From Candidatus Nomurabacteria bacterium CG1_02_43_90 (lineage in GTDB: Bacteria > Patescibacteriota > Minisyncoccia > Phycocordibacterales > UBA1550): a DNA stretch of 64,000 nucleotides. How positions within the stretch are numbered: position 1 is the stretch's first letter; each line of letters begins with the position of its first letter. Below, one piece after another: positions 726-62,831 of this stretch. The notes below the pieces were generated by a model. It did not search any database, was not told the DNA's origin, and was given only the letters and a program-made list of their open reading frames with translations. The translations under genes and the position numbers were made by a program. Location of the stretch: assembly GCA_001871765.1 (NCBI GenBank), contig MNVN01000015.1:52543-116542 (forward strand), read 5' to 3'.

Positions 726-2120
726 ATGGAACGAACATACATTAAAGATTTAAAAGAGAAAATCGGGCAAGAGGTATCCATTTCTGGATGGGTTAATGTT
801 CGGCGTGATCAAGGGAAGATGGTTTTTCTGGACTTGCGTGATGTCACCGGCAAAGTCCAAGCAGTCGTTCTTCCTATGCATACCGAGGCACTTGAGGTTG
901 CACAGCGTGTTCGCTCAGAATGGGTTGTAAGTGTTTCTGCTCAAGTGAACAAACGCCCCGATCGCAATATCAAAGAGGGCGTATTGAATGGGGATATTGA
1001 ACTTGAAGTTTTGAATATTGAAGTCTTGAATGAGGCACAAACTCCACCGATGGATATAGCTTCGGATGGACATGAGATCGGAGAAGAAACGCGCCTCAAG
1101 TACCGCTACCTTGACCTTCGTCGTCCTCGCCTCCAGTACAACATGCGTTTGCGCCACAGCGTTACGCTCCATGTACGTAATTTTCTTTCCCGTCATGGAT
1201 TTCTCGAAATAGAAACGCCGATTCTTACAAAGTCGACCCCCGAAGGTTCTCGGGACTATGTTGTGCCCTCACGTCTTGAACAGGGCAAATTCTATGCGCT
1301 TCCGCAGTCACCTCAACAATACAAACAACTCCTTATGGTTGCAGGGACGGAACGATACTTCCAGGTTGCGCGGTGCATGCGCGACGAAGACACTCGTGGC
1401 GACCGTCAACCAGAGTTCACTCAGCTTGATATGGAGCTTTCCTTTGTAAGAGAGGAGGACATTATGCGTCTCAACGAGGAGCTTTTGATTGAGCTTGTGC
1501 AAACCTTGACTCCGGAAAAGAAAATTCAAACTATCCCATTTCCCCGTATTACCTACAAGGATGCGATGGAGAAGTATGGGAATGACAAGCCAGATATCCG
1601 TGAAGACAAAAACGACCCTGACCTCTTGGCATTTTGTTGGGTTATCGATTTCCCGTTTTTCGAGAAAGATAAAAAGGGGGCATGGACTTTTACCCACAAT
1701 CCATTCTCTTCACCACAGAAGGCGTACTACGAAGACTTAATGGAGAAAAAAAATATTGGCGAAATTTTAGCGACACAATATGATATTGCGCTCAACGGAT
1801 TTGAAATCGGTGGTGGAAGTATCCGCAATCATCGCCCCGAGGCGCTCATCAAAGTTCTCGAGATTATGGGACACACTGAAGAAAGTATTCGTTCAAATTT
1901 TGGACACATGCTCGAGGCATTTTCGTACGGCGCACCTCCGCACGGTGGTATTGCGTGGGGACTCGACAGGCTTGTAACCTTGCTCACGAATGAGCCAAAC
2001 ATCCGTGAAGTTATCGCATTCCCGAAGACGGGCGAAGGCCGTGACCTTATGATGGAAGCACCGTCTGAAATAAGCGCAGAGCAGTTGCAGGAGTTGGGTA
2101 TTGAGGTGAAGAAGAAGTAA
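726..2120 (+). CDS. aspS: aspartyl-tRNA synthetase, compact form lacking the GAD insertion
   Basis: Motifs LPQSPQQYKQLLM, FQVARCMRDED, RQPEFTQLDMELSF (class II motif 2, Asp-type), C-terminal GIAWGLDRLV motif 3; 464 aa, no insertion domain between motifs 2 and 3. Confidence 0.9.
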   Translation: MERTYIKDLKEKIGQEVSISGWVNVRRDQGKMVFLDLRDVTGKVQAVVLPMHTEALEVAQRVRSEWVVSVSAQVNKRPDRNIKEGVLNGDIELEVLNIEVLNEAQTPPMDIASDGHEIGEETRLKYRYLDLRRPRLQYNMRLRHSVTLHVRNFLSRHGFLEIETPILTKSTPEGSRDYVVPSRLEQGKFYALPQSPQQYKQLLMVAGTERYFQVARCMRDEDTRGDRQPEFTQLDMELSFVREEDIMRLNEELLIELVQTLTPEKKIQTIPFPRITYKDAMEKYGNDKPDIREDKNDPDLLAFCWVIDFPFFEKDKKGAWTFTHNPFSSPQKAYYEDLMEKKNIGEILATQYDIALNGFEIGGGSIRNHRPEALIKVLEIMGHTEESIRSNFGHMLEAFSYGAPPHGGIAWGLDRLVTLLTNEPNIREVIAFPKTGEGRDLMMEAPSEISAEQLQELGIEVKKK

Positions 2121-25508: not shown

Positions 25509-25835
25509 TTATTTAATCGCATCAATCATCACCTTCATGAAAGGTTGACGATGTCCGTTCTTTTTGAAATAACGTGATTTGTTGCGATAACGAATTACTA
25601 CAACTTTCTTTCCACGCCCTTCTTCAACGAGTGTTGCGTGAACGGATGCTCCCACAACTATCGGTGCTCCAATAAGGGTCTTTGAACCATCGTTAACTAA
25701 GAGCACTTGGTCAAAAACAATCTTGTCGCCAACCTTGGGTTCTCCGGGAAGCTTCTCAATAACGAGGGTTTCACCGGGAGCAACCTTGTACTGCTTTCCT
25801 CCTGTCTGTATTACTGCAAAATTCATAGTTCTCAT
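25509..25835 (-). CDS. rplU: 50S ribosomal protein L21; probable start at 25826 (MNFAVIQTGGKQY)
   Basis: AVIQTGGKQYKVAPGETLVIEKL matches L21 consensus. Confidence 0.9.
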   Translation of the reverse strand: MRTMNFAVIQTGGKQYKVAPGETLVIEKLPGEPKVGDKIVFDQVLLVNDGSKTLIGAPIVVGASVHATLVEEGRGKKVVVIRYRNKSRYFKKNGHRQPFMKVMIDAIK

Positions 25836-25923
25836 ATTGTACAGGAAAAAAAAGAAAATGCAAGTATTTGTGCGAATAAATGAAACTCTGGTATCCTTAA
25901 GCTCTCTTTTGAGATTATGGGTA

Positions 25924-25953
25924 TTGACAAAACAACATATTTTATATTATAGT
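25924..25953 (+). promoter_or_regulatory. sigma70-like promoter (TTGACA-N18-TATAGT) driving candidate sRNA
   Basis: ttgaca at 25924-25929, tatagt at 25948-25953. Confidence 0.4.
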
Positions 25954-25957
25954 AGAA

Positions 25958-26098
25958 ATGTTAGGGTGTTCTTGAGTCAAGGTCGTAGCATCTACGAGAT
26001 GCTACTGAGGACTCCACGCTAACACACTTGGGTTTTTATGTACTCACCCGCCCGGGAGCATCCCCCTTTTGCTCCCGGTTTTTTTATTCAAAATACCA
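25958..26098 (+). ncRNA. candidate small structured RNA (about 140 nt) of unknown family
   Basis: Promoter-like element upstream. Internal stems: gttagggtg/cacgctaac closing helix, cttg-agt-caag and gtagcatct-acg-agatgctac hairpins. Strong terminal hairpin ccgggagca/tgctcccgg followed by TTTTTTT. No ORF. Confidence 0.4.
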
Positions 26099-26103
26099 GA
26101 CTT

Positions 26104-27240
26104 CTAACCCTCAATGATTGGCTTTTCAATAAGAAGTGGGTCAATTCCTGCCGTTTCGCCTGCAATCTTTACCACGTCCTTGTCTACCTTTTTGAGTTCT
26201 TTGTAGGCAGTATTATAGTGGTTCACGGTTGTCCCAAGAGCATTCCCGAGCTTCTTCATATATTCTTCATATGCGGTCAGGTGTTTTCGAAGTTCTTCCA
26301 CGCGCCCAATAATGAGTTGCGCTGACTCTTCTATTTTAAATGCTCGAAAACCGTAGAGGACTGATTGTAAATATGCAGAAAATGTTGTTGGGGAAACAAT
26401 GATGACTTTCTTTTCGTTCGAAGCGTAGTCAATGAGACTTCGTGTGTTTACTTTTACTGAACCGACTTCATTGATAAGGAGGTCATAGTAGATACCTTCT
26501 GCAGGAATAAACATAAAAGCAAAGGGCAGAGTTCCCTCCTCGGGTCGTATGTACTTTGCAGTTTCATCAATACGTTTTTTGAGATCGTTGCGAAAATCTT
26601 TCTCAAGTTCCTCTTTTCGTATTTCATCAGTTTCATTCACAATACGGTTATAGTTGTCGAGAGAGAACTTTGCATCAACGGGAATATAGCCATCTTTGGT
26701 CAAAATGACGGCATCTACTGCATCACCATTTTTGAATTGATACTGAATCTTGTATGCAGTAGGAGGCAGAATATTCGAAAGAATGAGTTCGAGCGCCGCT
26801 TCACCAAGGTTCCCACGTTGCTTCTGGTGCTTGAGGACTTTTTCAAGGTTTTGTAACTGATCCGTAATACCGAGCACTTGTTTTGAAGTTTCATTTGCCG
26901 CGGTCATCTCCTTTGCGACACTGGTAAGGTTGCGTTCTACTTGCTCGTTGATTTCACGAATGAGGTTTTGAGATTCTGTAAATTGCATGTGTACGGCTTG
27001 TTGCATCTCTTTGTTTGAAGAGCCAACCTTAGCGTCAACCGTTTTCATAAAATCGCCAAGCTGTGCCTGGAAGTTTCCAAGCTGGTTTTGAATAAGGAGA
27101 AGGGCGTCACCTTGAGGGTCGCGCTCTGATGCCGGTTCTTTGTGTAAAAAGCTTATGGTAACAATCACCATAAGCGCTCCGAGAATAAGGACGATGAGGA
27201 TAAGTAGGGTTGATGACATATTAGATTCCATAAGCAGCAC
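26104..27240 (-). CDS. rmuC: DNA recombination protein RmuC
   Basis: N-terminal TM, long coiled coil, C-terminal RmuC nuclease-like domain (YIPVDAKFSLDNY ... FAFMFIPAEGIYY ... VIIVSPTTFSAYL). Confidence 0.8.
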   Translation of the reverse strand: MLLMESNMSSTLLILIVLILGALMVIVTISFLHKEPASERDPQGDALLLIQNQLGNFQAQLGDFMKTVDAKVGSSNKEMQQAVHMQFTESQNLIREINEQVERNLTSVAKEMTAANETSKQVLGITDQLQNLEKVLKHQKQRGNLGEAALELILSNILPPTAYKIQYQFKNGDAVDAVILTKDGYIPVDAKFSLDNYNRIVNETDEIRKEELEKDFRNDLKKRIDETAKYIRPEEGTLPFAFMFIPAEGIYYDLLINEVGSVKVNTRSLIDYASNEKKVIIVSPTTFSAYLQSVLYGFRAFKIEESAQLIIGRVEELRKHLTAYEEYMKKLGNALGTTVNHYNTAYKELKKVDKDVVKIAGETAGIDPLLIEKPIIEG

Positions 27241-27418
27241 TCATATTTGATAAAAATGCGGGGATTGCAAACATGAGCCCAATAAGAGGGAGGATAAAAA
27301 GTGCGAGGCTCCCGTAAAAAGTCCACATGAGGTACTTGCGCGTTTTTTCGGTGGCAATATTTATTTTTTGTAAAAGTTCATTTTGCTCTTGTATGCGTTG
27401 TAAAATTTCTTGTTCCAT
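27221..27418 (-). CDS. small membrane protein (65 aa), likely co-transcribed with rmuC
   Basis: Coiled N-part plus one TM helix; 20-nt overlap with rmuC start. Confidence 0.35.
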   Translation of the reverse strand: MEQEILQRIQEQNELLQKINIATEKTRKYLMWTFYGSLALFILPLIGLMFAIPAFLSNMSAAYGI

Positions 27419-27445: not shown

Positions 27446-27480
27446 AAATAAAAACAGGTCGCCAATTTCTGGCGACCTGC
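27446..27480 (-). terminator. intrinsic terminator downstream of GGDEF gene
   Basis: caggtcgcca-atttc-tggcgacctg; on minus strand followed by TGTTTTTATTTT. Confidence 0.7.
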
Positions 27481-27483
27481 ATA

Positions 27484-27515
27484 GGTTTTTTATTTCTTTT
27501 TATTTCTTTTTATTT
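27484..27515. repeat. three tandem copies of a 10-bp unit (tatttctttt)
   Basis: ttttatttctttttatttctttttatttctttttt. Confidence 0.8.
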
Positions 27516-28078
27516 CTTTTTTGCTCGATTTGTCGCCTATCAGCGACCTGAAGCAACTCTTCTACCCCACCCTGTATCCCCTCAGATGTGCTTGCTACGC
27601 CCCACGACGCACATAAATACGTTAGGGTTCCTTGTTTATCAAACCAAAACTTGCTGAGTTGGTGCTCTATTTTCTTGCACACCGACACTGCTTCGTGATG
27701 AGTGCCTGGTATCAGAATACAGAACTCATCGCCCCCAAATCTCGCAATAATATCAGAGCTCCGTACGCAAACGGAAAGAAAATCCGCAAACTCAATGATC
27801 AAACGATCTCCCCGGGTATGATCCTTGTCATTTTCTTTTTTGAAATTATCAATATCAATAAAGACTATCGAAAAATGCATACCGGATCGCTTATACAAAC
27901 CAAGATGATGCTCAATTTCACGCATCAGCCTTTTTTTGTTAGCCAAACCCGTCATTATGTCCGTCTCCCGAGCTTTCTGTAACTCTTCAGTAAGCTCGGT
28001 CAGTTTTCTATAAAGGCGGAGGTTCTCCACCTGGAGTCTTGTTGCGAGTATTTGGTACTCGCATGTTTTTTTATTCAT
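27500..28078 (-). CDS. minimal GGDEF-domain diguanylate cyclase with short N-terminal coiled coil
   Basis: RFGGDEF active-site motif, DIMTGLANKKRL, FSIVFIDIDNFKKEND; 192 aa, no sensor domain. Confidence 0.8.
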   Translation of the reverse strand: MNKKTCEYQILATRLQVENLRLYRKLTELTEELQKARETDIMTGLANKKRLMREIEHHLGLYKRSGMHFSIVFIDIDNFKKENDKDHTRGDRLIIEFADFLSVCVRSSDIIARFGGDEFCILIPGTHHEAVSVCKKIEHQLSKFWFDKQGTLTYLCASWGVASTSEGIQGGVEELLQVADRRQIEQKRNKKK

Positions 28079-62276: not shown

Positions 62277-62456
62277 TACTCTCCCCTGCCTACGAAATTC
62301 GTGCGCGGGGGATTCGTTTGCCAAAAATACAAAGTATGTTATTCTGCACAGCAGTAAATTGGTCTGCCTTTGTGCAGGTTTTGTAATTTGTAAAAAAGGA
62401 AAATTAGATGAGAAAAATTTGTACCCCCCCCTCCGCCCTTCAACAATCCAGATTTT

Positions 62457-62831
62457 GTGCTTTTGAAAAGTACCACCATTGAGGTCCCGCTATCCCCAGG
62501 AAACGAAACGGCCGTAAGAAGAATTAAAGTTGGCATTGTCGCAACCTGGAAACACCTCTTGCCAGCAGAATGTATCGAGGTGCTCAAGCAAGATGGCGCA
62601 TTGCTCCTCGGAAAACTGGGGGCGGAATTAGTCATTGAGCATGCCCCCTCAGATTTTGTCCTTCAGCACCCATGGTGGATCGCATCGTTTAGCGAGCATC
62701 ATGAAGTCGAGATTAATGGCGTCACGGACCCCCTTTCAAAAAGTGTTCTAAAAAGAACCACGAGAAATCGGGACCGTATGAACCTGCATGGTGTTGGTTA
62801 TTTCTTTTGGTTCAACGATGTAGACGAATAA
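62457..62831 (+). CDS. hypothetical protein (124 aa, GTG start; weak RBS)
   Basis: Balanced composition; followed by strong terminator at 62849-62886; frame open from 62412 through a C8 tract. Confidence 0.35.
   Translation: MLLKSTTIEVPLSPGNETAVRRIKVGIVATWKHLLPAECIEVLKQDGALLLGKLGAELVIEHAPSDFVLQHPWWIASFSEHHEVEINGVTDPLSKSVLKRTTRNRDRMNLHGVGYFFWFNDVDE

Follow-up and report, generated by a model that had tools for sequence, protein, structure and literature searches.

Ribosomal-protein leaders are known upstream of rplU (Rfam RF00559). Among independent small RNAs (sRNAs), LhrC is 110 nt long and carries three CUCCC...UUUU sites (one in loop A, one in a single-stranded stretch and one in the loop of the terminator), and any of them can bind the G-rich SD region of lapB mRNA (PMC4132741). 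More generally, SD-blocking sRNAs of one class, built of a 5′ hairpin and a classical terminator, can be told by their unpaired UCCC motifs, and Geissmann et al. found the C-rich motifs in the most conserved, unpaired parts of these variable, Hfq-independent molecules (PMC2790875). Sequence alone hardly reveals Ms1, which is best followed through its conserved gene neighbourhood (PMC9130861).

Here, we describe a predicted RNA gene located between rplU and rmuC in the window, i.e., the whole stretch of 64,000 nt of DNA that was analysed. As read from the sequence, the plus strand at 25960-26085 very probably carries a genuine small RNA gene equipped with a promoter and a terminator of its own. 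We lean slightly towards the view that it is an independent sRNA of a lineage-specific, rapidly evolving rplU-rmuC family, with trans base pairing as the mechanism that we would infer.

The window RNA and LhrC of Listeria monocytogenes (RF00616) resemble each other in size (~110-125 nt) and in layout: a hairpin at the 5′ end is followed by a short unpaired stretch and an intrinsic terminator, the loop of which is C-rich and flanked by U (CUCCC...UUUU in LhrC, UCCCCCUUUU in the window). The relatives of the window also have CUCCC in the loop of the 5′ hairpin, giving the same multi-site layout, and LhrC was the sole Rfam sRNA alignment to follow the architecture of the 255-nt homologue L004 (L-numbers designate related loci fetched through L21 and RmuC homologues). 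However, L004 scored 15.5 bits where the gathering threshold is 110, and the window gave no LhrC match at E ≤ 10. Moreover, LhrC is found in another phylum and is multicopy, whereas the window gene is single-copy in 64 kb, and the three motifs of LhrC compare with one clear site (the terminator loop) in the window and two or three in its relatives. A similar likeness is seen with RsaE/RoxS, RsaA, RsaC, RsaG, RsaH, RNAIII and FsrA of low-GC Gram-positives, since in the rplU-rmuC family, too, helices vary and loop motifs stay, but none of these sRNAs gives an Rfam match; in addition, they block SDs in genomes having an SD at nearly every gene, whereas the window genome appears SD-poor.

Like Ms1, the rplU-rmuC family is traced by gene neighbourhood and barely by sequence. 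It differs from Ms1 and 6S in that the window RNA has no long irregular hairpin or central bubble, its 5′ and 3′ ends are not paired together, its 3′ end is a terminator, and no Rfam match to 6S or Ms1 was obtained. Finally, the gene lies directly upstream of rplU as the L21 leader (RF00559) does, but on the opposite strand, with its own promoter and terminator and without an Rfam match to that leader.

Results

Organisation of the rplU-rmuC locus

The 277-nt spacer between rplU and rmuC holds the promoter, the body and the terminator of the predicted sRNA gene. The features of the locus are as follows:

25509-25826, minus strand: rplU, ribosomal protein L21 (105 aa, Pfam Ribosomal_L21p PF00829), divergent neighbour of the sRNA
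25836-25863, minus strand: predicted rplU promoter, read from the sequence (TTGCAT 25863-25858, 16-nt spacer, TACAAT 25841-25836)
25924-25929, plus strand: putative -35 box TTGACA (promoter score 11/12)
25948-25953, plus strand: putative -10 box TATAGT, after an 18-nt spacer from the -35 box
25960-26085, plus strand: predicted transcript of ~126 nt, with the probable start at G25960, 7 nt past the -10 box, and the end at the U-tract
25960-26023, plus strand: predicted 5′ domain (closing helix, 5′ internal loop UUCUU, inner helix GAGUC/GACUC)
25985-26005, plus strand: predicted apical 9-bp perfect hairpin GUAGCAUCU-ACG-AGAUGCUAC (stem 25985-25993 / 25997-26005)
26029-26050, plus strand: D3, a second, weak predicted hairpin (UGGGU / ACCCG, 12-nt loop UUUUAUGUACUC) outside the closing helix and before the terminator
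26052-26078, plus strand: predicted terminator hairpin with a 9-bp GC-rich stem and the C-rich loop UCCCCCUUU at 26061-26069
26079-26085, plus strand: U-tract (T7) of the terminator, read from the sequence
26104-27219, minus strand: rmuC (371 aa, Pfam RmuC PF02646, 100% identical to P0121), convergent neighbour

An independent small RNA divergent from rplU had been proposed here in a preliminary description, on the basis of a TTGACA-N18-TATAGT promoter at 25924-25953, a GC-rich terminator followed by seven T and the lack of an ORF between them. All three elements were recovered. The promoter was the top site in a 3-kb scan, the terminator has the 9-bp stem and T7 run listed above, and the only ATG frames within 25960-26085 encode 5 and 7 aa, with no SD ahead of any frame and no useful ORF. 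The automatic terminator scan accepts loops of ≤8 nt, and the 9-nt loop was the sole reason that this hairpin was missed. The 95-aa ORF at 26038-26325 runs antisense through rmuC. Taken by itself, the promoter is not significant, since such patterns occur about as often as expected: promoter-like sites were not enriched in the 3-kb scan (4 found vs 5.7 expected), and the pattern TTGACAAAA-N15-TANNNT was found once in 64 kb, where 0.94 occurrences are expected. The case against chance rests on conservation, and not on the motifs themselves.

The rplU gene has a putative promoter of its own, the -10 box of which lies 9 nt ahead of the ATG at 25826. This promoter was missed by the automatic promoter scan because its -35 box matches at only 3/6 positions, and an equivalent TTGCAT-N17-TAGAAT is present upstream of rplU in all close relatives. 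From these signals, rplU is predicted to be essentially leaderless here, its mRNA starting at 25827-25829. With a conserved promoter so close to the ATG, the spacer is not an rplU leader. No plus-strand gene was found past the sRNA terminator in any of the relatives' loci examined, and in the window the rmuC stop codon follows 18 nt past the U-tract. The earlier statement that the RNA is not a 5′ leader, no plus-strand gene lying downstream, thus agrees with the separate rplU promoter, with the polarity of the element and with the loci of the relatives. On the minus strand, no hairpin with a trailing U-tract was found in 25836-26103; rmuC would therefore have no terminator of its own, and its transcripts would read antisense through the sRNA gene.

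For strand and INDEPENDENCE, four observations (promoter, U-tract, G-U pairs and fold energy) favour the plus strand. The promoter and the U-tract are on the plus strand in all family members, and on the minus strand the terminator hairpin is trailed by GCGGGUGAG, which is no U-tract. The stems of the relatives contain G-U pairs that would turn into A-C mismatches on the minus strand. Finally, the plus strand gives the better fold in 18 of 21 members, with a mean advantage of 6.4 kcal/mol.

Predicted structure of the RNA

The predicted 126-nt RNA has an MFE of -50.1 kcal/mol, compared with -31.8 ± 3.6 kcal/mol in dinucleotide shuffles (z = -5.06, or ~-5.1), and none of the 200 shuffles folded as well. 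The closing helix pairs GTTAGGGTG (25960-25968) with CACGCTAAC (26015-26023), including one G-G mismatch, and the inner helix (GAGTC/GACTC in the DNA) is formed by 25974-25978 and 26010-26014. The predicted fold is dominated by the apical hairpin. In the terminator stem, CCGGGAGCA (26052-26060) is paired with TGCTCCCGG (26070-26078), leaving the 9-nt loop TCCCCCTTT. The fold proposed previously was a closing helix around two hairpins, followed by the terminator. The helix is retained in our model, at the positions just given, but it encloses a single stacked, extended hairpin made of the inner helix and the apical stem, and the second hairpin, D3, is placed outside.

Conservation in close relatives

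In the close relative L177/L178, the same RNA is present and the RmuC protein is 96% identical to that of the window. At the fourfold-degenerate sites of rmuC, 51/162 positions differ (31.5%), vs 4/126 positions over the predicted transcript; the binomial probability of ≤4 changes in 126 neutral sites is ~1e-15. All four differences from L177 fall within the apical hairpin region (25985-26012), with 0/25 in 25960-25984 and 0/73 in 26013-26085, and a 1-nt indel is included among the differences between the window and L177. D3 is identical in both, as are all the single-stranded parts of the 3′ half. Divergence in the flanks reaches 23% upstream of the promoter, 3/6 positions (50%) from the -10 box to the start and 67% past the T-run, while the promoter itself differs at 2/30 positions, both in the spacer. 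The block conserved with L177/L178 opens exactly at 25960 and runs as far as the T-run, and these sharp edges mean that it shares the boundaries of the predicted transcript.

Conservation at the same position in related genomes had been named as a check of the proposal; the conservation observed far exceeds that of neutral sites, and its extent is that of the predicted transcript. Purifying selection is confined to this transcript, as the comparisons with L177/L178 show. Other close pairs combine 94-97% sRNA identity with 17-32% fourfold divergence in rplU. Among the distant long forms, overall identity drops to about the neutral level apart from shared motifs. In four more contigs of the window's species, the spacer is identical. 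Contigs of this organism are present in groundwater data (ENA ERZ909571 / SRR1534154, PRJNA229517; ERZ27293351; ERZ27293407).

The apical hairpin is the least constrained part of the RNA and the only one that is not conserved. Its changes in L177 are weakening and not compensatory. L184 has a plain CGUU loop where the window has the apical hairpin (GGUUAGGCUUGAGUC-CGUU-GACUCCC), and the palindrome itself occurs once in the window and in none of the other species fetched. Together, the plain loop of L184 and the confinement of the changes to this region indicate that the apical palindrome is an expansion, specific to this lineage, that sits in a conserved hairpin loop.

An sRNA family between rplU and rmuC

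A gene with its own putative promoter and terminator and without an ORF was found at the rplU-rmuC locus in ~20 genomes, with lengths of 64-255 nt (L002-L006, L008, L010, L012, L013, L015, L016, L020, L173-L176 and L177-L185). The carriers, like the source of the window, are Candidatus Yonathbacteria-like Patescibacteria (Candidate Phyla Radiation, CPR), an assignment taken from the names of related genome records and of the best L21 homologues. Complete MAGs with a family member include MHUT01, DMXP01, PCUO01 and JBAQCU01. The family promoter, TTGACA(A)AA-N17/18-TAnnnT, is on the strand opposite to rplU, and the TTGACA(A)AA element has kept its position in at least 17 relatives. A GC hairpin and a T-run are found just ahead of the rmuC end in the family members. 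The window copy conforms in its promoter as well as in its position between the divergent rplU and the convergent rmuC.

Using blastn with the window RNA against 80 related loci, the terminator alone was matched, in three of them, which suggests that the body is fast-evolving. As blastn was insufficient, homology was established by gene neighbourhood and covariance models. The covariance model R2, built without window-type sequences, recognised the window copy at 42.7 bits (E = 7e-11), with the next best match in 64 kb at 15.5 bits, and also recovered the held-out L179, L177, L012, L184, L013 and L020. There was no second copy in the 64 kb, where the best other matches gave 15-18 bits. In an L21-based search of metagenome contigs, almost only distant bacteria were found among the matches listed.

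Nearly all members have the 3′ module in common, i.e., the short hairpin D3 and the terminator. The counterparts of D3 (GGGU..ACCC in the window) are GGUC..GACC, GGCC..GGCC and GGGC..GCCC in relatives, which are compensatory changes. In an alignment of twelve 3′ modules from 12 species, 92% of the cells are paired and 8/13 pairs are changed on both sides; this pairing was matched by none of 500 shuffles, and no slid register came close. Compensatory change in relatives, also named beforehand as a check, was thus found in both D3 and the terminator, with 6/9 pairs of the terminator stem changed on both sides in the family. While this stem covaries, the loop retains the motif YCCC(C)CUU (C-rich, YCCCCCUUU) in ~15 of 22 homologues, the window having UCCCCCUUU.

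Most members have a hairpin with the loop CUCCCUGRG, CUCCUCCCUGAG or CACCUCCUU; the latter was found in L174 and CUCCUCCCUGAG in L008, L010, L173 and L185. In the middle domain of the long forms, the core is YUGAG-loop-CUCCCUCU, and the YUGAG..CUCC hairpin core was identified in L184, L003, L005, L012, L013 and L020, where its fourth and fifth pairs covary. Most relatives therefore contain one or two extra C-rich motifs, in the CUCCCUGRG or CACCUCCUU hairpin loop and in the CUCCCUCU shoulder. CTCCCTGRG is absent from the window, where the loop of the 5′ domain is ACG; this anti-SD-like type of 5′ loop is not universal, L004 also being without it. Similarly, the CCCCACUUUUUACCAC loop found in D3 of a dozen species is absent from the window copy. 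The D3 loop carries the motif CCCCAC(A)UUUUUACCAC in L002-L006, L008, L010, L173, L176, L180, L183 and L185, whereas the window, L177, L179, L012, L013 and L184 lack it. Retained in the window copy are the promoter, D3, the hairpin core UUGAG..CUCC and the terminator, C-rich loop included. Judging from these motifs, this copy is a reduced, shortened family member that has lost further C-rich motifs.

The gene is missing in some equally close relatives (L009, L017, L022 and L023), and in L007 and L025 small ORFs are found in its place. Its absence from some close relatives indicates that the gene is dispensable and accessory.

Database searches

Rfam 15 at gathering thresholds gave only one tRNA in the whole window. 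At E ≤ 10, nothing credible was obtained on the window locus, on 13 related loci or on the 255-nt homologue L004; the sub-threshold matches were noise only (Hrs13, SpF10, anti-hemB, mir-959 and LhrC, the last at 15.5 bits). No tRNA or tmRNA was detected by ARAGORN. Because neither Rfam 15 nor ARAGORN gave a match, we place the RNA outside the curated SRP, 6S, RNase P, tmRNA and leader families, and by its sequence it cannot be recognised as SRP, 6S, RNase P or tmRNA, nor as a riboswitch or ribosomal leader. The initial reading, made from the sequence alone, had likewise found no SRP, 6S, tmRNA or RNase P signature, and this now extends to the longer homologues.

The family is new, in that it is absent from Rfam and from the literature searched, where we found no sRNA study of Yonathbacteria, Parcubacteria or CPR. 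A described regulatory RNA from CPR was found neither among Rfam matches to the element nor in that literature. The kind of molecule is a known one, a small regulatory RNA having its own promoter and terminator and C-rich loops, with a function that this design would suggest.

Discussion

Promoter and terminator anatomy, predicted fold, conservation and plus-strand polarity all support the proposal of an independent sRNA divergent from rplU. Its transcription would start at a sigma-70-type promoter, and the RNA would end at the intrinsic terminator. The layout shared with the C-rich sRNAs of Firmicutes makes trans base pairing the mechanism that we take as most likely. The exposed, C-rich loop of the terminator, UCCCCCUUU (26061-26069), would serve as seed, and the D3 loop and the invariant single-stranded linker may assist it. 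The RNA would bind G-rich stretches of target mRNAs, for example at the ribosome-binding site or the 5′ end, and this would lower the translation or the stability of the targets, as with the UCCC-motif sRNAs of Firmicutes (LhrC, RsaE/RoxS and RNAIII). By analogy with these systems, action in trans by base pairing with the C-rich loop as seed is possible rather than probable. GGAG or GAGG was found upstream in at most 20 of 61 crude gene calls, allowing up to six alternative starts per gene, and with apparently so few SD sequences in the genome a general SD-blocking role is less natural than in Firmicutes. In the window copy, only a single C-rich motif is left that is clearly exposed.

A search of the 64 kb yielded no convincing target. 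Complements of the loop, 10-12 nt long, at ~80-91, 39685 and 62021 were rejected as targets, all of them being antisense to likely genes. The rplU mRNA was rejected as well, its complementarity being neither consistent nor covarying in the comparisons completed: pairing at its 5′ end was no better than with shuffles, the longest complementary stretches were within chance in 15 of 17 species, and the conserved loop does not track the synonymous changes of the K-V-G-D codons. Isolated cases of strong pairing were seen in L002 (-38 kcal/mol with rplU nt 77-102) and in L020 (a 13-nt perfect match to rplU), and neither is conserved.

Another possible role is that the loops mimic the 3′ end of 16S rRNA (CACCUCCUU and CUCCUCCCUGAG), the RNA being a decoy or competitor that would tune the translation of the SD-bearing minority of genes, as a Patescibacteria-specific riboregulator in genomes that appear SD-poor. 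We consider this quite unlikely. If it were true, the window copy would demonstrate that the 5′ "business" module is open to exchange or loss at a locus that retains its 3′ module, and modular sRNA turnover at a fixed position would have an unusually clear example in this uncultivated lineage.

Less unlikely than such a decoy, and still doubtful, is a real and selected RNA that acts by means other than trans pairing of the C-rich loop, either by binding or titrating a protein or in cis, as an antisense to rmuC. In the cis variant, convergent transcription or a duplex could limit the 3′ extension of rmuC transcripts into rplU and set the stability of rmuC mRNA, and the lack of a minus-strand hairpin with a U-tract in 25836-26103 makes such read-through plausible. 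The position beside rmuC, fixed in every genome having the gene, is compatible with a cis role, but shared ancestry alone could explain it. Moreover, a pure antisense or insulator would not need a conserved C-rich loop or covarying stems, and it would leave unexplained that L009, L017, L022 and L023, which lack the gene, have the same rplU-rmuC arrangement. A protein-binding or multi-site surface would fit the invariance, relative to L177, of the whole single-stranded 3′ half and not just of the loop; however, no RNA-binding-protein gene is associated with the locus.

The remaining explanations dispense with the plus-strand regulatory RNA. A DNA-level element or a decaying remnant without RNA function (a protein site, a mobile-element scar or an old rplU duplication) seems very unlikely to us. 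The promoter-terminator cassette is bracketed by an 11-nt imperfect inverted repeat (25884-25894 / 26093-26103), but such a repeat is near chance level in 268 nt (~0.3 expected by our estimate) and is not conserved in L177. The locus is variable, being empty in some genomes and occupied by small ORFs in others, two family motifs are lost in the window copy, and the minus strand of the L002 terminator resembles rplU codons 26-34. Against decay stand the 0/98 changes outside the apical hairpin, compared with 31.5% neutral divergence, and the covarying stems, while the conserved block fits the boundaries of a transcript and not a compact binding site. A repeated or mobile element was rejected, with the apical palindrome unique and the flanking repeat neither above chance nor conserved; a phage or attachment-site origin was also rejected, as two motifs of the family had no match in viral contigs. 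Still less probable is a minus-strand element, either a structured rplU leader of the L21 autoregulatory type or a 3′ UTR/terminator region of rmuC. Leaders of this type do exist upstream of rplU (RF00559), the window helices are all Watson-Crick and would also form on the minus strand, and folding the whole spacer as minus strand gives z = -3.7. However, the -10 box of the rplU promoter, 9 nt before the ATG, leaves essentially no room for a leader, an L21 leader gave no Rfam match, and conservation breaks off 6 nt past the -10 box of the plus strand, without continuing in the direction of rplU. The U-tract is on the plus strand only, where at least 17 genomes have a consensus promoter; folding is better on this strand in 18/21 members, and the G-U pairs would be A-C mismatches on the other. 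That the region encodes a very small protein is scarcely credible. L007 and L025 do have small ORFs with SD-like sequences at the same position, and the window RNA contains the 5- and 7-codon ATG frames, but there is no useful ORF in 25960-26085, no SD ahead of any frame, no reading frame shared among the 64-255-nt homologues, and a 1-nt indel separates the window from L177.

The reading as an independent sRNA of the rplU-rmuC family leads to an exact prediction, a 126-nt plus-strand RNA running from 25960 to ~26085. The locus provides a concrete family of sRNAs, traceable through gene neighbourhood and with a signature of selection that can be measured. It also suggests that ultra-small bacteria, too, may have the C-rich-loop design of Firmicutes.

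Probably leaderless start of rplU, and -10-like boxes near other start codons

The -10 box of rplU, TACAAT, ends 9 nt upstream of the ATG (window 25826-25863, minus strand), and because of this spacing the rplU mRNA is, judging from the sequence, probably leaderless. A -10-like hexamer was also found 7-11 nt ahead of the start codon in several other genes of the window, as seen in the following upstream sequences:

23311: dnaB, -10-like hexamer near the start
5974: gene starting here, -10-like hexamer near the start
52207: gene starting here, -10-like hexamer near the start

In a positional count, the end of a -10-like box lay 7-18 nt upstream in 13 of 59 genes, which is only a mild enrichment. 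GGAG or GAGG was found upstream of at most 20 of the 61 gene calls of the window, the calls being crude.

Surroundings of the sRNA gene

The entire sRNA cassette, from promoter to terminator, is flanked on both sides by an inverted repeat:

25884-25894 and 26093-26103: 11-nt inverted repeat, AACTCTGGTAT / ATACCAGACTT, 10/11 complementary

Its frequency is at about chance level, and it is not kept in the close relative L177. Three further features were mapped upstream of rmuC:

27221-27418, minus strand: 65-aa ORF, hydrophobic in its C-terminal half
27454-27480, both strands: perfect palindromic hairpin, CAGGTCGCCA...TGGCGACCTG, with a terminator score on either strand
27500-28078, minus strand: GGDEF-domain gene, preceding the 65-aa ORF

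The end of the 65-aa ORF, for which no Pfam match was found, directly adjoins the rmuC start, a position conserved in all relatives fetched. The hairpin lies between this ORF and the GGDEF gene. Elsewhere in the window, the 180-nt spacer at 62277-62456, ahead of the plus-strand gene at 62457, carries a long plus-strand C-run (GTACCCCCCCCTCCGCCCTTCAA, about 62423-62445) and may be a further C-rich RNA element or a 5' UTR.

Complementarity between the sRNA and rplU

In L002, one of the rplU/rmuC loci fetched from related genomes, the terminator loop and 3' arm of the sRNA (GCCUCCCCCCUUAGGCUUCCGGGA; 2037-2070, minus strand) are a near-perfect complement of rplU codons 26-34 (nt 77-102), with a duplex energy of -38 kcal/mol versus -25 +/- 2.4 in codon-shuffled controls. 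This complementarity is not kept in other species, and the match could be due to chance, a target site, or the remnant of an old partial duplication. The homologue in the related locus L020 (2173-2236, minus strand), the shortest at 64 nt, contains 13 nt (UCACCCGGAAGUU) that pair perfectly with nt 74-86 of rplU from the same genome, at the E-K-L-P-G-E codons, a match equalled by none of 200 codon shuffles. Pairing at this rplU site is weaker in L006 and L008 and absent from most other species.

Possible turnover at the sRNA locus

In the related locus L018, both covariance models matched positions 1724-1800 (minus strand) with 21-24.5 bits, ~700 nt upstream of rplU, and the immediate upstream region of rplU is without the sRNA; on these model matches, the segment may represent a copy of the sRNA 3' module that has been displaced. 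In two other relatives, L007 and L025, the place upstream of rplU where the sRNA gene would lie holds a similar promoter and, downstream of it, a small ORF that has an SD-like sequence (GGGAGATAAAAATG; ATAGGAGGGACATTATG). The sRNA locus upstream of rplU seems to be a hotspot for the exchange of small genes.
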